DNA of 64,000 bases from an uncultured Spirochaetota bacterium (GCA_963734495.1 CAVTHK010000006.1:57109-121108); one strand, 5' to 3'. Counted from the first letter of the stretch, positions 6,043 through 36,580 are shown. The notes: a model not told the origin generated them from the sequence alone. A program made the numbers and translations.

Positions 6043-9000
6043 TCACGAGCAGCCGGTCGTGCCCCCGCAGGTCTCGCACTTGAGGCAGGTGCCGTTGCGC
6101 ACCAGCGTGAAGTGGCCGCACGTCGGGCACGGGTCGCCCTCGTAGCCCTGCATGCGCGCGAGCAGCATCGGGCTCTCGTCCTCCGCGGGCTGTGCGGCCC
6201 GGCCGACCGGGCCGCCCGAAGCGCCGTTGCCGTTCCTGCCGTTCTCCATCGTCTCGGTGGCGATCAGGTCGTCCGGTTTGACCTGCACCAGGTCGGTCCG
6301 GTGGAGGTAGGTCAGCGCCAGGTCGCGGAAGATCAAGTCCAGGACCGACGTGCACATCTTGATGTTGTCGTGGCCGTGCACCATCCCGTTGGGCTCGAAG
6401 CGCGTAAAGGTAAAGGCGTCCACGTACTCCTCGAGCGGCACCCCGTACTGAAGGCCGAGAGAGACCGCGATGGCGAAGCTGTTGAGCAGCGAGCGGAACG
6501 CGGCGCCCTCCTTGTGCATGTCGAGAAAGATCTCACCGAGCGCCCCGTTCTCGTACTCGCCGGTGCGGATGAACAGGCTGTGCTGCCCGATCTTGGCCTT
6601 CTGCGTGTAGCCGTTGCGCCTGTTGGGCAGGGGGCTGCGCTTCTGGAGCTGGGCTGCAGCCTCCGCCGCCGCAGCCGGGGCGCGCGCGGCCGGGGCCGCC
6701 GACGGGCGGGCGCGCGGCGTGAGGCTCGCGCGCCGCCCTGCCCGCGGCGACGATCTCCTCCGCTACCGAGTCCGCGCTCGCGCCGAGCGCCGACAGCGGC
6801 TGGCTCAGCTTGGAGCCGTCCCGGTAGAGCGCGATCGCCTTGAGCATCTTGCGCCACGAGTCCAGGTACGCCTCCTTGATCTCTTCGACGGTGGCCTGGC
6901 CGGGCATGTTGATCGTCTTGGAGATCGCGCCGGAGATGTACGGCTGCACGGCGGCCATCATGTCGATGTGGGCCTTCCACGCGATGTAGCGCGTGCCCCA
7001 GCGCCCGCTCCTGCTGGCCGTGTCGAACACGGCGTAATGGGCGGGCGAGAGGTGCGGGGCGCCCTCGATCGTCATCGCGCCGCAGGCGTAGCGGTCCGCG
7101 GCTTCCGCCTCTTCGCTCGTGAAGCCGAGGGCCTGCGCCACGTTGAGCGACAGCGCAACATCAGTCTCCGGCACCCCGAGAACCCCGGCCAGGACCGCCG
7201 TCCCGATGACCGTCGGCGTAAGGGCCATGGACAGGCTGAAGCTCGACGGCAGCAACGCCTCGACCTTGTCGAGGGCGTCCGCGGGGATTCCCCTGGCAGC
7301 CAGCGACTCGCGCGAGATGTCCGGCGCACCCGCGAGCGTGCCCCGGCCGACGCAGTACTCCGTGATCTCGCCGATCTGCTGCTCGCTGTATCCGAGCCGG
7401 CGCAGCGCGGGCGGGACCGACTGGTTGATGATCTTGAAGTAGCCGCCGCCGGCGAGCTTCTTGAACTTGACCAGGGCGTAGTCCGGCTCGATCCCCGTGG
7501 TGTCGCAGTCCATGACCAGCCCGATCGTGCCGGTCGGCGCGATCGCCGTGACCTGCGCGTTGCGGTAGCCGTGCTTCTCGCCGAGCGCGAGCGCGCGATC
7601 CCAGCTTTCGCGCGCGCCCGCGGCGAGGTCCGGCGGGCACGCCGCGGCATCGAGGCCCACCGGCGTGATCGTGAGCCCTTCGTATTCGTCCGCCGGAGCG
7701 CCGTGCGCGGCGCGGCGGTGATTGCGGATGACCCGCAGCATGGGATCGCGGTTGGCGGCGTAGCGCGCGAACGCGCCGAGCTCGCCGGCCATCTCGGCCG
7801 AAGCAGCGTAGGCCTCGCCCGACAGGATCGCCCCCAGCGCCGCGCCGATGTTGCGGCCCCCAGCGCTGTCGTACGGGATGCCCATCACCATCAGCAGCGT
7901 GCCGAGGTTCGCGAACCCGAGCCCGAGCGTACGGTAGGCATAGCTGCGCCGCGCCACCTCGCGGCTGGGGAACTGCGCCATGAGGACGCTGATCTCCAGG
8001 ACGACGGTCCAGATCCGGATCGCGTGGCGGTACTCCTCGAGCAGGAAGCGGCCGCTCTCCTGGTCGTAGAACTTGAGCAGGTTGAGCGACGCGAGGTTGC
8101 ACGCGGTGTCGTCGAGGAATGAATATTCTGAACAGTTGTGGACCACGATGCCGTTCGCGACGAAGTGATGGCTCCGAGGCTCGCTCAGATCGAAAACGTC
8201 TTCGACGCCGCAAGGCGTGAGTGATGCGACGCGGTCAACGAACCCGTCCGCATAGACTCCGACTGAGGCGTTGAGCTCGGCCAGCTTCGCGGCTTTGGGG
8301 CTTGAAGGCAGGAACCCGATCTCGCGCTCAAAGGTCACGCGCGAAGAGCGGCTGAGCCGCAGGCTGTGCATCTGCTGGACGTAGTAGGCGCGGGTGCCGC
8401 CTTTCCCGTCCGGGAGCATCGCGATGTCGCCTCCTGCGCGCCGGCGGTTCTCGTAGATCTTCGCCTTGATGCCGAATCCAAGCAGCAGGAGCTGGACTTG
8501 CTGCAGAAGCTCGAGGCTCGTCGAATCCAGTGCGACGTACATGTCCTTCGAGCGGGAGTTGGCAACAGTACCATCGGTGGAGAAGAGCCCTTTCAGGACG
8601 CCAGCCAGGCTCTCGCGATCGAGCTCGTAGATGGCGTCGGTGAACCGCTTGTGCGCGGACCCCTCGCCGAGCACGGCGTAGCGCGAAAGCTCCTCGAGCA
8701 CGGCCGCGACCGCGGTCCCGACGCGCAGCGTCGTGGGTGTAGCCACCAGTCCCGTCCGGCGCGTACCTCGCCGGTCGCCGTCGAAGACCCACGCCTTGGC
8801 CGCGTCTACGCAATCTTGCAGCTGCAGCGCGAGGTGCGGTTCCCGCTTGCTGACCGTGATGAACAGAGTCCCCTCGCGATCGCCCCGTGCAATGCAGCCG
8901 TCGCCGACCGCGGCGCCCAGCAGGATCGCCGCCTCTTCAGGCAGCGAGTCGGTACCGAACGCCGGCTTCTCGAGGATCACGTGGTCGTCGCCGGTCAGAT

Positions 9001-21398: not shown

Positions 21399-23462
21399 CT
21401 ATGGCTCCAGGTACCACTGCATGGGGTAATAGACGTACATGTACCCGGTGCGCCAGTCCCAGATGCCCTTGGTCGGCACGTTTTTCAGCTTGTTGGAAAC
21501 CATGATCGGCTGCGGCGCCATCGAGACGGTCCCGATGTACCACAGGTTCTCGGCCTGCGCCTTGAGCAGCTTGTCCGCGGCCTCGTCGCGCTTCTTGGGG
21601 TCGATGTCGGTCCCGAGGATGTCGCGGTACGCGTTGAGCTGCTTCATCAGCGGGGGAGGTTCCACGCCCTTCTCGCCGTTGCTGATGTAGTAGTTCCGCC
21701 AGCCCGGCCACGGGGTGTCCTTGCCGCTGTCGGCTCCCGCCGGTGCCAGGTCCCGGTCCGCGCCGCCGAATGAGGTGTCCGTCATCTGGTCCATGAGCAG
21801 CGCGTGGGCGTCGCCCTTGTTGGTGGGCCAGAACGTGTCGTGCAGCGAGCGGGCGACCTGCTTGGTGTCGAACTTGAGCCCCACGGCGTCCAGCTTGGCT
21901 TTGATCAGCTCGACGACCGGCGCAGGGTCGACCGTTCCGACGATGGCAAAGATCATCTGCGGGCTGAACTTCTTGCCGCTCGGCGTCTCACGCCAGCCGT
22001 CGCCGTCCCTGTCCTTCATGCCCATCTCGTCGAGCAGCCTCTTGGACTCCTCCGGCTTGTACTCGACGTACGCCTGGGCGTACTCGGGCTTGAAGTAGCG
22101 GCTCGTCGGCGGGATGGTCGCCTGCATGACGATGGCCTGCCCGAAGTAGACCTTGTCGTTGATCTCGTTGCGATCAATGGCCTGCGAGACCGCTCGGCGG
22201 AAACGCACGTCGTTGAAGACCGCGTACATGTCGGGGTTCTCGTGCGAGAGGTTCAGCAGCACCACGATGTCCGATCCGTACGCCCTGCTGTAGATCAGGG
22301 TCTTGTAGCCGGACTTCTGCTCGTTGGCCTTGTACAGCGGGATGTTGGGGGTCTGGGTAAAGCGCCCCGACAGGTGGGCCTCGCCGGTCACCATCTTGGC
22401 GGCCGCGATCTCGGGGTTGGCGGCGATGTTGACCCGCACCTTGTCGATGTACGGAAGCTGGTTGCCCTGCGTGTCCACGAAGGGCCAGTAGGGGTTGCGC
22501 TCCCACATCATGTAGGTCTCGGTGCGCTCCGTCACGACGTAGGGCGAGATGACCGGCTTCTGGGCCTCCCACTCGGGGTGGTCGTGCGAGTCGTTGGAGA
22601 CGCGCAGGTAGTACTGCCACCATTCCTTCAATCCCACCTTCTTCGCCATCTCGGTGATCTTGTCCACCGGCGTGAAGTCAGGATGGAAAGCCTTGAGATA
22701 ATGGGCGGGAGGGATGGGGACGATCGGGAACAGGTTGGCGTAGAAGTTGTAGTCGTGGAAGCGCGGATTGGGCTTGGCGAAGATAAAGGTCACCGTGTAG
22801 TCGTCGACCTTTTTGAACCCCGTCATCGCGATCGGCGTGATCTTGTCCGGCGGGGTCGGCGTCAGGTTCTTGTTGAAAGCGACGTGCTCCCACCAGAACT
22901 CGAGGTCCGCGGCCGTGAACGGCGCGCCGTCCGACCACTTGAGCCCCTTGCGCAGCTTGAGGGTGAGCTGCGTAAAGTCGGGCGAGTAGCTCCAGCCCTC
23001 GAGTATGAAGGGCACGGTCCTGCGGCCATCGGGGGTGGGGCGCCCGGGCCCGGGTTGGTGCTCCGGCCACTTGAAGAACATCGTGTCGCCGCGGTAGTTC
23101 GGCTCGGCCCAGACGATCGCGGTGCCGCCGTAGGTTCCGACCTTCTCGTAAGGCTCGACGACCGGCGGATCCGCAGGCAGTCGGTCCTTGACCGCCGGAA
23201 GCTTGCCCGCCTTGACCCGCTCGGCGAGCATCGGCGACTCCTGGTAGGCCTTGATGCCTGCCTGCGACGCGAGCTTGGGGGCTTCGTACCAGCTCTTGGG
23301 GACCTTCGCGTCGACGTACCGGCTGATGTCGGTTTGCACAGCCTCCTTCGGACCGGCTGCGGCCGAGTCGGCCCCTCCGCTCTTCTCGCCGGTCGCTCCA
23401 GCCCACAAGGGCAGCGCGAAACAGAACGCCATGAGAACGAGGAACACAACGAGCCTGCTCAT
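21399..23462 (-). CDS. ABC solute-binding protein, family 5 (probably oligosaccharide-binding)
   Basis: Signal peptide; ESPMLAERVKAGKLPAVKDRLP, LRKGLKWSDGAPFTA, ERNPYWPFVDTQGNQLPYID. Confidence 0.92.
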   Translation of the reverse strand: MSRLVVFLVLMAFCFALPLWAGATGEKSGGADSAAAGPKEAVQTDISRYVDAKVPKSWYEAPKLASQAGIKAYQESPMLAERVKAGKLPAVKDRLPADPPVVEPYEKVGTYGGTAIVWAEPNYRGDTMFFKWPEHQPGPGRPTPDGRRTVPFILEGWSYSPDFTQLTLKLRKGLKWSDGAPFTAADLEFWWEHVAFNKNLTPTPPDKITPIAMTGFKKVDDYTVTFIFAKPNPRFHDYNFYANLFPIVPIPPAHYLKAFHPDFTPVDKITEMAKKVGLKEWWQYYLRVSNDSHDHPEWEAQKPVISPYVVTERTETYMMWERNPYWPFVDTQGNQLPYIDKVRVNIAANPEIAAAKMVTGEAHLSGRFTQTPNIPLYKANEQKSGYKTLIYSRAYGSDIVVLLNLSHENPDMYAVFNDVRFRRAVSQAIDRNEINDKVYFGQAIVMQATIPPTSRYFKPEYAQAYVEYKPEESKRLLDEMGMKDRDGDGWRETPSGKKFSPQMIFAIVGTVDPAPVVELIKAKLDAVGLKFDTKQVARSLHDTFWPTNKGDAHALLMDQMTDTSFGGADRDLAPAGADSGKDTPWPGWRNYYISNGEKGVEPPPLMKQLNAYRDILGTDIDPKKRDEAADKLLKAQAENLWYIGTVSMAPQPIMVSNKLKNVPTKGIWDWRTGYMYVYYPMQWYLEP

Positions 23463-23549
23463 GATCGATCGCTCCTTTTGTTGCAAGGTCGGACCGGATT
23501 CGAACGCGCCGTCAACGCCGCCTGGACTTCGCACCTCCTCGAGCGATGC

Positions 23550-23603
23550 ATTATATACCGGAATCCGCCAGCCGTGTTCATGAAAATCGTTCACCGATTT
23601 TCA
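23550..23603 (-). promoter_or_regulatory. -10 box and palindromic operator upstream of the ABC operon
   Basis: TATAAT (minus strand, 23550-23555); perfect inverted repeat TGAAAATCG-N5-CGATTTTCA at 23581-23603. Confidence 0.65.
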
Positions 23604-23628
23604 CGGTCAGGCGCATCGGCGCGCGGCT

Positions 23629-24540
23629 TCAGCCGCCGCCGCGGACCGCGACGGAGGTGTGGCGGCCGACTTCGGCGACCCAGGCGGCCAGCGAGTCGGC
23701 GGAGGGAGTGTTCGTTTGCGGCAGCGTGGGCGCGCGGCCGAGACCGGGCAGCTTGGAGGTGCCCAGAGGATGATATGGAAGAAGGTCTACGCGCGCCACG
23801 CCCTCGAGCCTCGCGGCCAGCTCGCCGATCGCGCGCAGGTGGCCGGGCCTGTCGTTCAGGCCCGGGATGAGCGGGCAGCGCAGGATGATGCGAGCGCCGG
23901 ACCGCGAGAGGCGCTCGAGATTCGCCAGGATGAGCCGGCCGTCGGCGCCGGTCAGGCGCTCGTGCGCTTCGGGGTCGGTCTCCTTGACGTCGAAGAGGAA
24001 GAGGTCCACGCGGCCGAGCAGCGCCTCGAGGCGTTCCCACGGCGCCTGGCCGCTGGTGTCGAGGCAGGTGTGCAGCCCCTGCGCCTTCGCGGCAGCAAGC
24101 AGAGCGGCCGTGAATTCATGCTGGAACAGGGGCTCACCGCCGGAGATCGTCATGCCGCCGCCCGAGGTCTCGTAGAAGGGCCTGTCCGACAGCACCTGCT
24201 CCATCACCTGCTCGACGGTCATGGAGCGGCCGACCCGCTCGAGGGCGCCGGAGTAGCACTGCTCGGAGCAGAGCCCGCAGCGCACGCACTCCGTCCGGTC
24301 GAAGGCGTGCTTGCCGTCGACGGCGCGGTGGCATCCGTGGGGGCAGACCCCGACGCACGCGAGGCAGCCGATGCAGCGGTCAGGTCTCCATGCGAGCTCG
24401 GGCTGCGGATCCATCGACTCGGGGTTGTGGCACCAGAGGCAGCGCAGCGGGCAGCCTTTGAGAAAGACGGTCGTGCGGATGCCCGGGCCGTCGTGAATCG
24501 CGAACCGCTGGATGTCGAAGACGAGGCCTGCGATGCCCAT
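23629..24540 (-). CDS. Glycyl-radical enzyme activating enzyme (radical SAM with ferredoxin insert)
   Basis: IQRFAIHDGPGIRTTVFLKGCPLRCLWCHNPES; two CxxCxxCxxxC ferredoxin motifs; SGGEP; LLPYH. Confidence 0.96.
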   Translation of the reverse strand: MGIAGLVFDIQRFAIHDGPGIRTTVFLKGCPLRCLWCHNPESMDPQPELAWRPDRCIGCLACVGVCPHGCHRAVDGKHAFDRTECVRCGLCSEQCYSGALERVGRSMTVEQVMEQVLSDRPFYETSGGGMTISGGEPLFQHEFTAALLAAAKAQGLHTCLDTSGQAPWERLEALLGRVDLFLFDVKETDPEAHERLTGADGRLILANLERLSRSGARIILRCPLIPGLNDRPGHLRAIGELAARLEGVARVDLLPYHPLGTSKLPGLGRAPTLPQTNTPSADSLAAWVAEVGRHTSVAVRGGG

Positions 24541-24550
24541 CGTTTGAGGG

Positions 24551-24580
24551 AGTGTAGCCGGGGCCGGCGCGGCGCGGCAA
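24551..24580 (-). promoter_or_regulatory. Candidate internal promoter for the activase gene
   Basis: Minus strand TTGCCG-18 nt-TACACT, 10 nt before the ATG. Confidence 0.5.
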
Positions 24581-24587
24581 CAGCCTC

Positions 24588-25440
24588 TCAGTGCCCTCTC
24601 GAGCGCCCGAGGAGGCTCGCCACGACGGCGGCGAGCGCCGGCCGCTCCGCCGCATCCTTGAAGCCGGCCATGCGGCCGTAGATCTCGGCCGCGGCCTCGT
24701 GGAAGCCGCGCGGAAGCCCGGCGCTCTCCATGGTCGCCGCGATCTCCAGCATTTCGCCGACAAAGCGCCACGCCTTGGCCGTCACGGAGCGCGTGCGGTC
24801 CGAGGCGCCGGAGGCAAGCTCGGGTTGCGAAATGGCCCATTCGCTGCGCAGGCTCGCGTCCACGCCTTCGGCCTCGGCCAGGGCGAGCACGGCGGCGACG
24901 AGCGCCTGGCTGCCCTTGGTCCAGGCCGAGTAGGCCATCTTCAGGGCCGACGCGGCCCCGACCGGCCCGCGCAGGTCGATCGCTTCGAGCGGGCTTCCCG
25001 CGAAGAGCTCCACGGCCTCGGCGGCCCGCGGCCCGCTCACGTAGAGGCGAGTCGTCTTCGGCTTCCACGGAGGACCGCCGATGATGCCGCCGTCGATGCA
25101 GCGGCCGCCTCCGCCTTCGACGAGGGCCGCGATCTCGCGCGCCCGGGCGGGCGAGACCGCATTCGCGTCGAGGTACGTGCCGCTGAACCCGAAGTTCATG
25201 ACTGCCGCGGCGACGTCTCGCGCCGAGGCCGGCGGCACGACGCTCACGATCATCGTGCTTCGCTCGACGAGCGACCGGAGCGCGCCCGCGTCCTCGAGGC
25301 CCGCCCTGGCCGCGCGCCGGCTGCTCGCCGCGCTCCGGCCTTCGGAAGCCCAGAGGACCGCGGCCCCGGAGCCGCGAGCCGCGGCGCCGACCGCCGATCC
25401 CATCTCGCCGGGACAAAGGAGTCCCACTGTTGCATGCGCA
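24588..25440 (-). CDS. NAD(P)-dependent oxidoreductase (6-phosphogluconate/3-hydroxyisobutyrate dehydrogenase-like, DUF1932 type); body downstream of the group II intron
   Basis: VGLLCPGEMGSAVG Rossmann motif, DANAVSP, DGGIIGGPP, ASALKMAYSAWTKG, KAWRFVGEM; in-frame ATG found only across the intron (27386). Confidence 0.88.
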
Positions 25441-27375
25441 ATTGGTCGATTACTGGCGCGGTACCGCTAACGCGGCCCGTTTCCAGTTCCTCCTTTCAAA
25501 CTGTGCGTGCGGTTTTCCCGCACACAGCTTACCGATGGTTTTCCTGAGACGGCTTGCGCGGGGTATCGCACGGTCCCGGCGAGCTTGTACAGGCCCAGGT
25601 CCCATAGTCGTTGCGGGGCCACCGGTCATAGCGGAAGCGCGTGCGCTGTCCGCCCCGGCGTCTCTTGCCAGTCGAGTACCCGTTTATACACGTAGGTGTC
25701 CATCTCTTTGAACTTCGCCTGCGAGTTTCCCGTCTGGAAGTAGTTGCCCCACCCGCGCAGCACCGGGTTCAGCAGCTCGATCAAGCTCATCCAGTCTTCC
25801 GGGCCGGACCGCTGCGCACGTCGGTCAGCTCATGGACCCGGGTACGAATGCGCTTCATCGCCTTGGGCGACGGCCACCGCTGCACGAAGTGCACCCGCGG
25901 ATTCCGCAGGATGCTTCGTCGCTTGCGCACTGTCCACCCAAGAAACTGAAAGCTCCTTCGCCTCGGTTGAGCCTGACCACGCGCGTCTTCTCGGGATGCA
26001 GCTCCAGGCCCAGGCGCCCCATGATGATCCGTATGCGCCTGAGGGCTTCCTGCGCCTGCCGACTCGCGGCGACACAGCACCACGAAGTCATCGGCATACC
26101 GCACCAGGACTCCCAGGTGCGAGCACCTGTCCGTCCAGATGCGGTCCAGAACATCCAGGTAGATGTTCGCCAGCAGCGGCGAGATCACGCCCCCTTGCGG
26201 CGTTCCCGCCAGCGTCTCTCTCACCGTCCCGTCTTCCATCACTCCTGCCTGTAACCACTGTCGGATCAGCTTCAGCACGCGCCGATCCGAGACCCGCTCC
26301 GTCACCAGCCGCAGCAGCTTCCTCTGGTCGATGCTGTCGAAGTAGCCTCGGATGTCCGCGTCGACCACCACGTTGTAGCCCCGGTTGCCAGCCTCACGGA
26401 TGGCCTCCATCGCCTGCGTCGCGCTGCGCCTCGGGCGGAACCCGTAGCTGCAATCCTCGAAAGTCCGCCTCGAAGATCGGTTCGATGACGAGCTTCGTCG
26501 CCATCTGCACCACCCGGTCGCGCACCGTCGGTATCCCCAGCGGCCGCTGCTTTCCGTCTCCCTTCGGGATGTACCGCCTTCGCACCGGCGCCGGTCGGTA
26601 CTTGCCTGCCTTCAGGGTAGCCTCAATCCCTCGCAGGAACTCAGCCACCCCTCCGTCCTCGATGTCAGCGAGCGTCTCTCTGTCCACACCAGCCGCACCG
26701 CCGTTGGCCCGCACTCGCTCCCACGCTTCCCACAGGACGTCACTCCTGTAGATCCGGTCGTACAGCGCGTGGAACCGCCGCGTCCTACTCCGCTTGGCAC
26801 ACATCCATAGCCGTCGTTGGAGTTCTCGCACTTTGTCTGTGGGGTTGTTGGGTCCTTCGACCATGCCCTCGCGCTTACCTCCGCCTCCGGCGTAACCAAA
26901 GCAGGGCCCCTTCCCTCCAGCGGTTTCTCGCCGCCTTCCCCGGTACTATGAGCCCCTCGGACTCCCTCCCGGCTCCGCGCGATTTCGGTCTACCCCTTAT
27001 ACGCGCGGTCTTCGCCCGACAAGGCGCACCGGGTAGGGTCTCTCGTGTTCCGCACCATCCCTTCAAAACGTGCCGTCGCCAGTACCCCGGGGATGTCCAG
27101 TGCTCTTCCGGATCACGAGTCACTGTCTGTTGCCTTCGCCGCGACATGAGCGGCTCGGCCATCCCGATCCACCTTTCGGCTGATAATCTGTCGAGGCTTG
27201 CTCGGCGTTCACTGCGCGTTACGGCCCGCTTCCTTGCTCCCTCCTGTCAGAGGCCTTCGACGGTCCGCTCAGCCGCAGGGATCTCTCCCCACAACCGGAC
27301 CCTGCTACCGGGCGCTCCGGCGCTTACCTGGGCGGGACTCTCACCCGCTGGGGCGATGCAGCTTTCACGACGCAC
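25441..27375 (-). mobile_element. Group II intron (about 1.9 kb, RT-encoding, no endonuclease domain)
   Basis: 5' end GTGCG at 27375; domain V AGCTGTGTGCGGGAAAACCGCACGCACAGTT; 3' end ...CGACCAAT at 25441; EBS1 loop UCAUGUC (27143-27149) complementary to 5' exon ...GCCATG. Confidence 0.93.
25467..26864 (-). CDS. ltrA: Group II intron reverse transcriptase/maturase (several frameshifts as sequenced)
   Basis: [74 protein letters not shown]-terminus overlaps domains V-VI. Confidence 0.9.
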
Positions 27376-27424
27376 CATGGCGCCATCCTATCATAGGGCC
27401 GCGCCCGGCGTTCGGGTGAAGCCC

Positions 27425-27462
27425 TTGACCGGGCCGGGCCCCGCCTCTACGCTCGCGCTATG
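27425..27462 (+). promoter_or_regulatory. sigma70 promoter with probable leaderless start for the glycyl-radical enzyme
   Basis: TTGACC-17 nt-TACGCT-6 nt-ATG (27460); no SD. Confidence 0.7.
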
Positions 27463-29620
27463 AGCGTCCCCAGTCGCCGCCGCAGAGCTGACCTTCGCAG
27501 ACCGCATCCGACTGCTGCGCGAGAAGAAGATCCGCCAGACGCAGGAGAAGCTCGCGAAGAACGGCCCGATGGACGAGGACGATTACGGGACCGTCCTTCC
27601 GCCCGAGGGCTTCGTATGGAAGCCGATCCCCAACCATGCGAACGGCAGCTTCTACGGGCTCGACGGCTGGGCGCGCAACTTCCGCTCGCTCATGGAGTGC
27701 CACCCGACCTACGTCGACCCGCTGGACGCGCTGGCCGGGCGCTGGATGGTCTTCATGTCTCGCCTGCGGCCGGTCAAATGGAAACCGGAGCTGGACTACT
27801 CGCGCCTCAAGCCGTACCACGAGCTCTACGGCATCATCCCCGGGATCGGAGCGGACAGCCACTTCGCGCCCGACTACCGCATCGGTCTCGAGCTCGGCTG
27901 GGGCGGCTTGCTGGATCGGGTGCGCCGATGCCGCGCCGCCCGGGGAGCCGACAAGGCCGCGTTCTACCAGGCCGAGGAGGACACGATCCTCGGCGTGCAG
28001 AGCTGGATCAGGCGCACGGTCGCCGCGATTCGCGAAGCGGAGTCCCGCGAGCCGCGGCCGGAGCTGCGGCGGAACCTCCGCGAGATGGCCGACGTCAACG
28101 AGCGCCTGGTGAGCGGCGCGCCGCGCACGCTTCGCGAAGCCTGCCAGTGGATCGCCTGGTACAACATGGCCTCGCGCACGTACAACCGCGACGGGGCCGG
28201 CGGCCAGCTCGACGAGCTGCTTCGCCCCTACTACGAGCGCGACCTCGCGGCGGGGAGAGTCGACGACGAGGAGGCGACCTTTGTCTTCGCCTGTCTTCTC
28301 CTCAACGACGCGCACTACTACCAGATCGGCGGGCCCGGCCCCGACGGCCGCGACGTGACGTCGAAGGTCTCGTTCCTCATCCTCGAGGCCGCCCACCGCA
28401 TGGGCGTCTCCGCGAACCTCACGATCCGCGTGCACGAGGGCCTCGACAACGAGCTCTTCCTCAAGAGCGTCCGCCACCTGTTCGAGGACAGGCTCGGCTG
28501 GCCGCGCTACTCCGGCGACAAGGCGCTCGTCGACGGGTTCATGCGCAACGGCTATCCGGCCGAGCTCGCGCGCAGCCGCATCGCGGTCGGGTGCCACTGG
28601 ATGGCGATCCCGGGCCGGGAGTACACGCTCAACGACTGCGTCAAGATCAACATGGCGAAGGTGTTCGAAGCCGCGTTCTCGGAGCGGGGCGAGCGCACGG
28701 TCGAGGCGCTCTGGCGCCGCTTCGAAGCCCACCTCGAGCGCGCGGTGGCGGTCGTGGCGGAGGGGATCGACTTTCACCTCGCGCATCAGAAGGACAACAG
28801 CCCCGAGCTCATGCTGAACCTCCTCTGCCGCGGGCCGATCGAAAAGGGCGTCGACGTCACCGACGGCGGCGTCGAGATGTACAACATGTGCGTCGACGGG
28901 ACCGCGCTCGCCACGGTCGCGGACTCGTTCGCCGCCGTCGAGCAGCGCGTCGAGCGGGAGCGCCGCCTGAGCTGGGACGAGCTGGCCGCGGCGCTCCGCC
29001 GGGATTTCGCCGGCGTCGAGGGCGAGCGCGTGCGCCTGATGCTCCGCGCGAGCGAGCGCTACGGGCAGCCCGGTTCGCTCGGCGAGAAGTGGGCGGTGCG
29101 CCTCTCGCGCCGGTTCACCGAGCTCGTCAAGGCCGGGCCCACGCCGGGCGGCCGCATCATGATCCCGGGCTGGTTCAGCTGGTCGAACACGATCGCCATG
29201 GGGAAGGTCGTCGGCGCGACGCCTAACGGAAGGCATGCGGCCGCCCCGATCTCGCACGGCGCGAACCCCGACCCCGGCTTCGCCCGCGACTCCGCGCCGA
29301 CGCTGATGGCGCGGGCTATCGCGAAGATCCAGCCGGGCTACGGCAACACCGCGCCGATTCAGCTCGAGCTCGACCCGGGCGCCGCGCGCGGCGACGACGG
29401 GATCGCGAAGGTCGCGGCGCTCATCCGCACGCACTTCGAGCTTGGCGGGACCCTGTTCAACATCAACGTGATCGACGCGAAGCAGATCCGCGAGGCCCAC
29501 GCCGACCCCTCGAAGCATCCCGACCTCGTCGTGCGCGTGACGGGCTTTACCGCCTACTTCGCGGCGCTCTCGCCCGAGTTCCGGCAGCTCGTGGTCGACC
29601 GCATCATCGATGAAGGGTGA
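27460..29620 (+). CDS. Glycyl-radical enzyme of unknown function (PFL superfamily)
   Basis: C-terminal DLVVRVTGFTAYF glycyl motif, GATPNGR, cysteine loop IAVGCHW; extending from 27569 to ATG 27460 needs removal of one C in CCCC (27468-27471). Confidence 0.93.
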
Positions 29621-35758: not shown

Positions 35759-36580
35759 CAGTGGCCCCGCCTTTCCGCGAAGTACTGGTTGTAGCCCGTC
35801 GACGTCAGGAACAGCCCGAGGAACAGGAGGCTCGTGGCCACGATCGGCGCCCCGATCCACACGTACTTGCCCGGTCATGATCGCGCTGTAGGTGATGGCC
35901 CAGTAGACGGCGGAGCCGAGCGTCGGGGTCTGTATGGACGAGAGCCCGATGACCGCCAGCGCCGCCTCGGCGTTGATCACCGAGAGGATCGAGTTGATAA
36001 AGGCCACGATCCCGTAGGCGTACACGTAGGGAAAGAACTCCTGCGCGATGATCCGCGCCTTGCTGCAGCCCGAGTACCAGGCCATGTTCACGAACTCGCG
36101 CTCGCGCACCGAGAGCGCGATCGAGCGCGTGGTCCGAGCGCCCCACGCCCACCCGAAGGCGATCAGGATCGGCACGATCGTGATCAGCCCGCCCTTTCCG
36201 CGGATGAGCGAGCTCAGGACGATCAGGATCGGGAAGGTCGGGATCACGATGAACGAGTCGTTGATCAGCATCGCGACCCGGTCGTACGAACCGCCGAGGT
36301 AGCCGGAGCTCAGGCCCACCGCCAGCCCGATCAGGCTCGTGCAGATGCTCACCCCCGCGCCGAGCAGGATCGAGTTGCGGATCGCGAACATGAGGAACCA
36401 GAAGATGTCCTGCCCGAGGCCGTTGGTGCCCAGCAGGTGCTCCCAGCTGATCTTGAGGTACGGCGGGTAGGAGCTCTGCATCGACGGGTCCTTGGGGCAG
36501 AAGAGCGTCAGAACGAAAGCGCACAGCAAGAACACCGCGAGAATGACGACCCCGACCTTGAGCCGGCTGTTCCACTTCAT
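35758..36580 (-). CDS. Opp/Dpp-family ABC permease (OppC-like), one frameshift near 35871
   Basis: LGTNGLGQDIFW, REREFV, PTLG; the last TM helix (YVWIGAPIVATSLLFLGLFL) and TGA are in the shifted frame. Confidence 0.88.

Follow-up and report, generated by a model that had tools for sequence, protein, structure and literature searches.

The window analysed here, a stretch of 64,000 nucleotides from an uncultured Spirochaetota bacterium (GCA_963734495.1, CAVTHK010000006.1:57109-121108), carries a group II intron at the very beginning of a dehydrogenase-like gene (hereafter the host gene), with a glycyl-radical activase gene downstream and a divergent glycyl-radical enzyme gene on the other side (Table 1). 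The hallmarks of a group II intron were found, namely the 5′ GUGYG and domain I motifs, a domain V (D5) with the catalytic triad, a domain VI (D6) with a bulged A, and a reverse transcriptase (RT)/maturase ORF in domain IV. A sequence-only reading of this DNA had proposed such an intron in the first codons of a dehydrogenase gene, and both parts were confirmed, the gene as a DUF1932/NAD_binding_2 dehydrogenase and the intron by GTGCG at 27375, the Rfam domain I match, the fold of D5 and D6 and the RT pieces; its placement of the intron at the beginning of a metabolic gene was likewise borne out. Since the RF02003 match begins so close to the 5′ end, the intron has no large subdomain Ia. The last frame of the RT crosses D5, continues into D6 and ends with a stop codon at 25469-25467, which is 27 nt short of the terminal codon. 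The 3′ exon is without frameshift and 82% identical to its orthologue in G001, a genome of the same genus whose intron-less orthologue (L002) served as the reference for the start codon. The leaderless-type start of the divergent glycyl-radical gene is also kept in G001 (window 27425-27475, + strand), and an extra base in a C run at about 27467-27470 shifts the first codons of that gene.

Table 1. Features of the intron, its host gene and the neighbouring genes (window coordinates).
Feature	Position	Strand	Basis or remark
Damaged group II intron of 1936 nt from an endonuclease-less lineage close to class F	25440..27375	-	gamma, EBS3, branch point
Extended -10-like box (TGn + TAGGAT), TGATAGGAT, 6 nt ahead of the start codon; last three bases are the predicted IBS2	27385..27393	-	identical in the intron-less orthologue L002; putative promoter
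Host start codon ATG, the entire 5′ coding exon; with C27379 it makes up the 4-nt IBS1	27376..27378	-	comparison
Rfam match RF02003 (group-II-D1D4-4), 92 bits	27214..27350	-	Rfam; begins 25 nt after the intron 5′ end
Loop with EBS2; bases 27187-27185 are predicted partners of -7, -8 and -9 in the -10 box	27183..27189	-	covariation
EBS1 (CAUG), pairing over 4 bp with target positions -1 to -4	27145..27148	-	covariation
EBS3 (C); its complement G25439 opens the 3′ exon	27082	-	
J2/3 (CGA); gamma is C26959, which would pair with a terminal G	26957..26959	-	
RT/maturase ORF in domain IV, frameshifted, with its own GGAGG (26882-26878) and ATG (26864)	25467..26864	-	RVT_1 and TIGR04416 pieces
YADD motif of the RT	26098-26087	-	
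Domain V, AGC triad, 5-nt loop	25498..25530	-	fold
Domain VI, bulged branch-point A25446	25444..25493	-	fold
Terminal triplet of the intron, in the host-gene frame; ATT here, ATG or GTG in 141/146 ends	25440..25442	-	
3′ exon: codon 2 onward of a DUF1932/6-phosphogluconate-dehydrogenase-like NAD-binding (NAD_binding_2) protein	24588..25439	-	
Downstream glycyl-radical activase (context)	23629..24540	-	TACACT at 24556-24551, 10 nt ahead of its ATG
Divergent glycyl-radical enzyme gene (context)	27425..29620	+	TTGACC-17 nt-TACGCT-6 nt-ATG (27460), leaderless-type

The host start codon was located by comparison with G001, which shares the box TGATAGGAT and the ATG corresponding to 27378 but differs farther upstream; the in-frame start of the orthologue is the counterpart of ATG 27378. 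The start at 27386 with an 11-nt exon, as previously proposed, could not be upheld, because that ATG overlaps the TAGGAT hexamer and its counterpart is out of frame in G001; the real coding exon is 3 nt long. When the eight closest intron-less homologues (L002-L009) were read by eye, six had TAnnnT 5-8 nt ahead of the ATG, one had it at 9 nt and one had a Shine-Dalgarno (SD) sequence. The layout at the host gene, a -10 box directly ahead of the start codon and no SD sequence, is that of a leaderless gene, and a -10 motif immediately ahead of leaderless start codons is described in passages of PMC4007540. Transcription would thus be expected to start at the A of ATG 27378, and the 5′ exon of the precursor would therefore be 3 nt. 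The earlier claim of an extended -10 holds for the box at 27393-27385. This box is best described as the host gene's own conserved promoter-like element and, at the same time, as part of the predicted intron target; the divergent gene has a separate box at 27448-27453.

Relatives of the intron were collected by RT similarity to a second copy of the lineage in the same genome (contig C9), taking the best 80 of 561 genome matches and the best 80 of 583 metagenome matches; the C9 copy and the window were added to these 160 loci (162 in total), and ends were located by intron-internal motifs. J2/3 was CGA in 130/130 of these best-match loci in which the motif was found (32/162 were unmatched), so that the last base of the intron, pairing with gamma = C, should be G. 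Indeed the terminal base was G in 145 of 146 ends, the window having T, and the triplet after a conserved CCA was ATG in 133 of the 146 best-match ends, GTG in 8, ACG in 2, AAG in 2 and ATT in 1 (the window). An unbiased column scan showed EBS3 to be complementary to the base following this triplet in 65 of 76 representatives, where 24 would be expected, and EBS3 located by regular expression gave 106 Watson-Crick and 8 G-U matches among 127; in the window, EBS3 C27082 suits G25439 and not T25440. Six bases follow the bulged A25446 only if the intron ends at 25440. As gamma, EBS3 and branch-point spacing agree, the intron was taken to run from 27375 to 25440, and not to the 25441 read earlier. 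The canonical AY 3′ end is thus replaced in this lineage by AUG with gamma = C (AUU in the window); among the outgroups, AC ends go with J2/3 GGA, and an AG end was seen in one with CGA. A boundary inside the codon (RT|G, with a canonical AY end) fits neither gamma = C nor the covariation of EBS3 with the nucleotide that follows the terminal G, and was ruled out.

With 27376 joined to 25439 the reading frame is restored, and the sequence over the junction agrees with G001. Correct splicing would therefore restore the reading frame as had been claimed, but the join given for it was in frame only since two errors cancel. An accompanying caveat, that a G might be missing near the junction, pointed in the right direction in view of the window's terminal T. 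Empty alleles in sister Nannocystis genomes showed one start codon followed directly by codon 2 at 4/5 sites, the fifth being too diverged, and they include sites with GTG before and ATG after the intron; the second codon therefore arrives with the intron. A target-site duplication or a donor-derived 5′ codon was ruled out by the single GTG in the empty alleles of such GTG-before/ATG-after sites, and the comparisons of L072 (L216, L217) and of L208 were too diverged to judge duplication. Mobility is implied only by this coexistence of filled and empty alleles.

The insertion sites of the best-match loci gave a strong answer to whether start codons are preferred, a test that the first reading had suggested: in 130 readable flanks the 5′ codon was ATG in 106, GTG in 22 and neither in 2, that is, 128/130 after a start codon, with 32 loci lacking a usable 5′ end. 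TAnnnT was found 5-8 nt upstream of the codon in 103 of 119 unique flanks (at 6 nt in 68, 7 nt in 28 and 8 nt in 7), compared with 80/8559 random RTG (1%) and 64/1160 approximate gene starts of this genome (6%), and G occupied -14 in 69 of these 103 flanks. The spacing of 6 to 8 nt between box and codon varied even within one intron variant. The 16/119 flanks without TAnnnT at 5-8 nt include three tandem copies. The same pattern was seen at the 5′ ends of sisters from the window's own order (L037, L038, L039), and the hosts among the best-match loci belong to Myxococcota, Acidobacteriota, Pseudomonadota, Actinomycetota, Gemmatimonadota and others. A sample of 300 genomes from the phylum yielded no close sister at E 1e-20. 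The second copy in this genome (L036; G000 contig C9, about 6053-8060), 70% identical, lies behind TAnnnT-6 nt-ATG, with its terminal ATG intact and its RT end frameshifted, and a third RT (contig C2, L244) belongs to another intron type that is not at a start codon. A related intron on a Paenibacillus plasmid (L223; NZ_CP118110, about 434-2300) has J2/3 CGA and a G end, is not at a start codon, carries TAnnnT 7 nt ahead of its likely 5′ end and may be an intermediate. Four copies (L147, L156, L157 and L190) lie directly behind the terminal ATG of another copy, through tandem self-targeting or assembly of circular forms.

Covariation between intron and target was evaluated in 81 representatives less than 90% identical, with permutation within the two subfamilies. 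Base 3 of EBS1 pairs with -3 in 75 of the 81 (63.3 by chance) and base 4 with -4 in 61/81 (36.8 by chance), and in the EBS2 loop nt 4 pairs with -8 in 59/69 (30.4 by chance) and nt 5 with -9 in 32 (20.0 by chance). The offset control was not significant, and EBS2 did not track -10 in the representatives (16 against 14.9). A six-base EBS1 was rejected, as loop base 5 pairs in 5/81 (5.4 by chance) and base 6 in 34/81 (33.7 by chance). The loop identified earlier, and its match to the upstream hexamer at five of six positions, are thus real, but only loop bases 1-4 track the target; the claim that the recognised target includes the ATG held, with EBS1 covarying with the start codon. The EBS2/-8 association runs in the same direction in about 7 of 7 independent RT-tree pairs (p about 0.016). 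All 11 loci with a CAC-type EBS1 are at GTG; this type requires 8 changes on the RT tree but gives only 5 independent pairs (p 0.125). The terminal triplet tracks EBS1 and not the target, being GTG in 8 of the 11 loci of the CAC type but at no CAT locus, which supports a possible ribozyme role for the triplet. No covariation was observed between EBS2 and the intron's own D6 hexamer (32 against 31.0; 8 against 10.5). For the fixed TA at -12/-11 no RNA partner was found in the intron, and these bases may be recognised through protein contact or reflect the need for an opened promoter. If transcription does start at the ATG, -4 and -7 to -9 would be absent from the RNA, and their pairings would therefore act on DNA in homing.

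The reading frames of the intron were compared in the same loci. The first 447 nt were stop-free in the host-codon frame in 109/130 best-match loci, against 0 and 0 in the other two frames, a contrast to which ribozyme motifs closing the +1 and +2 frames and the relatedness of the loci may contribute. The host-codon frame is also the RT frame in 103 loci and is open into the RT in 80. The window's RT falls in a Bryobacterales subfamily (support 98), in which the host-codon frame mostly stops about 11 codons ahead of the RT's own SD-ATG; in the window, the frame meets a stop at codon 43. At the other end, the frame after the terminal codon is open in 95/108, against 16 and 54 in the other frames. 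The RT stop, located in 143 loci, lies 6-60 nt before the terminal codon after passage through D5/D6 in 53, before D5 in 89 and beyond the terminal codon in 1. The end of D6 carries nAnnnT six bases ahead of the terminal codon in 124/146 and TAnnnT in 50/146, though no such -10-like hexamer in the window, and an SD-like AGGA near the intron end sits in the D6 stem. In one contig (L024/L039; G044:C32, locus positions about 1350-1640) a 290-nt internally deleted sister remnant, with EBS1 and domains II-III missing, fronts an rpe-like gene and has kept the terminal ATG, the host-ATG frame stopping 8 nt before it. These arrangements suggest that the host gene could be rescued without splicing. The proposed dependence of host expression on splicing is not supported for the lineage, because sister introns carry an in-frame terminal start codon as a possible bypass, and splicing is probably not the sole route by which such host genes are kept expressed.

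With regard to classification, the nearest named references in a quick RT tree with long branches, built without basal F members, labelled classes C, D or E, or any member of the IIB1 start/stop clade, were class F or unclassified introns, adjacent to g2, g3 and S.ag.I2, and the monophyly of the lineage itself had a support of only 58. Endonuclease-less introns of class F (IIF) or unclassified position include Ni.ha.I1 (g3), B.th.I3 (g2), S.ag.I2 and Rh.sp.I1 (PMC3552965). Like them, the present lineage has an RT-X without the D/En part, a length of about 1.9-2.0 kb, six bases after the branch A and a 5-nt D5 loop, the last named as a class F feature in a passage of PMC3753933; no HNH was found in the sister RTs L105 (whole ORF) and L072 (first 400 aa). 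It differs in that the reference and outgroup loci fetched are not at leaderless starts and that their readable 3′ ends are AC, AT or AG, a comparison that excludes So.us.I2, Ge.ur.I1 and Pe.th.I2, one of which could belong to the lineage.

Introns at initiation or termination codons are known from the IIB1/CL1 clade (Avi.groEL, EcKTE56.groEL; Michel et al., 2007, as cited in a passage of PMC12584367), which according to the same passage is proteobacterial, has a subdomain Ia of 300-700 nt and reaches about 3.2 kb in EcKTE56.groEL. The likeness, on that description, lies in a position at or beside a start or stop codon, a regenerated codon and a spared host gene. Of the features of the clade, however, only the start-codon site was found here (128/130); the Ia of 300-700 nt and a CL1 RT with En were not, the part before the ORF being about 490-590 nt in sisters and the domain I core beginning 25 nt past the 5′ end in the window. 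The present introns are moreover 1.9-2.0 kb long, end in G with gamma = C, insert after a whole codon and also require a -10-like box that covaries with EBS2. A search of an E. coli collection returned short matches only and no groEL-type intron. The short EBS pairing and the recognition of a host expression signal, leading to many unrelated target genes, resemble class C (IIC) introns, which passages of PMC12584367 describe as targeting terminator hairpins without EBS2; the present lineage, by contrast, targets the opposite end of the transcription unit and has retained an EBS2 of 3 nt. The intron protein also appears to borrow the translation start of its host. In organellar group IIA introns, translation of the protein proceeds in frame from the upstream exon; here, unlike in these, the upstream exon would be the start codon alone and the frame would cross ribozyme domains I-IV.

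Comparison of the loci reveals the boundaries, the target consensus, the covariation of EBS1, EBS2 and EBS3, the terminal start codon borne by the intron and the open host-start frame. On these grounds the window probably holds a damaged copy of a lineage that is placed directly after start codons, 5-8 nt behind TAnnnT, and that likely homes to leaderless promoters through base pairs formed on the DNA with the start codon and with the -10 box. The pairings with -4 and the -10 box would act only on DNA, in reverse splicing, and since the RT lacks an endonuclease the target would probably be the non-template strand opened at the promoter. The host promoter would then drive transcription of the intron. 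Translation of the RT would begin at the host start codon in the larger subfamily, whereas in the window's subfamily a leader frame stops just ahead of an SD-ATG that belongs to the RT. Rescue of the host gene would for the most part need no splicing, the terminal AUG serving for initiation or re-initiation; accurate splicing would be a second route. More broadly, we lean towards the view that this is a widespread undescribed lineage that homes to active leaderless promoters, pairing with the -10 box of the opened promoter and with the start codon, that is transcribed with a 5′ exon of 3 nt and translated through its own ribozyme, and that supplies the host with a substitute start codon, in many cases accompanied by a coupled RT stop or a further -10 box; insertion would thereby be near-neutral without splicing. 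The choice of target is well supported by the aligned loci and apparently undescribed: no account of the start-codon/promoter-box habit was found in the full-text literature, whose coverage leaves out Michel 2007 and Simon 2008, and passages of PMC4424553 and PMC8919778 mention neither start-codon nor promoter targeting.

Several other explanations were weighed against this one. The same lineage, target and boundaries could be combined with host expression that requires splicing after all, whether of a transcript with a 3-nt exon or of a longer read-through RNA; the terminal RUG would then be kept for a ribozyme reason, as a partner of EBS1 in circle formation or self-targeting, and not as a start codon. 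Such a view draws on the tracking of EBS1 by the terminal triplet, on tandem copies at the intron's own end (L147, L156, L157), on the good conservation of gamma and EBS3 and on the position of the SD-like AGGA in the D6 stem. An EBS1 helix of 3 bp would nevertheless be very short, when passages of PMC3753933 describe EBS1-IBS1 as crucial for splicing in class E/F introns (and EBS2 as dispensable for splicing in vitro), and the L024 remnant, devoid of EBS1 and domains II-III, retains an in-frame ATG ahead of an intact-looking gene start; we therefore regard splicing dependence as unlikely. It is still more improbable that TAnnnT reflects only a sequence preference of the intron (IBS2 and protein contacts) at sites that need not be active leaderless promoters. 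EBS2 does pair with half of the hexamer, and a consensus promoter scan over 23400-27700 returned no site, but the scan demands a match at -35. The same box lies ahead of the ATG in most of the closest intron-less homologues, its spacing varies within one intron variant, G is enriched at -14, and the layout is one described for leaderless starts, all of which speak for a promoter. The original model as a whole, with its start at 27386, 11-nt exon, 3′ end at 25441 and expression only after splicing, has an in-frame join and a canonical AY end to recommend it; given the overlap of its start with the -10 hexamer, the out-of-frame counterpart in G001, the evidence for 25440 and the fact that no sister supports such an exon, it is scarcely credible.

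With homing to leaderless starts kept as the preferred reading of the lineage, the state of the window copy was considered separately. Its RT, whose frameshifts the first reading had not mentioned, aligned to that of sister L105 in seven segments. Over about 1.4 kb the frame switches at least five times, compared with a background of 91 switches over 582 kb genome-wide and of 1 over 17 kb of this contig. Alignment of 19 kb of flank to G001 revealed two single-base insertions and one at the glycyl-radical start, along with seven larger non-triplet indels near gene junctions. The two insertions, at 35872 and 36587, are probably assembly errors; the former joins the frame of an ABC permease to that of the ATPase that follows. 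None of the matches listed for contigs of X1-X4, X6 and X8 bridged either intron junction. Decay and local assembly error appear about equally likely for this copy. The proposal that the lesions (the terminal T and the RT frameshifts) arose in assembly, the living intron being intact, falls a little short of an even chance: the lesions are mostly single-base indels relative to a 91%-identical sister contig and twelve sisters, the end branch of the window RT is ordinary (0.19, median 0.17), the copy on C9 is likewise frameshifted and the flanking genes carry single-base insertions too, but errors would have to concentrate in the intron to account for its frame switches, and the terminal change reads as a substitution. 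If the terminal T is real, both routes to host expression would be weakened, splicing by the mismatch with gamma and the spare start by becoming AUU, and the dehydrogenase may be poorly expressed.

If the preferred reading is true, the lineage would represent a third strategy by which group II introns target signals, beside that of the IIC introns at terminators and that of the IIB1 start/stop clade, and the first based on reading a promoter. It would bear on how endonuclease-less introns reach single-stranded DNA, on the role of EBS2 in class E/F introns and on the minimum length of a 5′ exon. The window copy, being damaged, is a poor model, but cultured Nannocystis strains carry many copies, several of them intact in N. 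punicea FL3 or N. pusilla, which would make these ideas directly testable, and insertion sites would mark leaderless starts in uncultured bacteria.

Two further arrangements were observed. In L116 and L117 a second intron-like sequence interrupts the intron just after domain V, in a twintron-like manner. Other RT-bearing elements are repeated at a spacing of about 2 kb in G041:C1 (about 1626000-1631000) and G054:C2 (about 3421000-3425500), suggesting tandem arrays of a different intron.
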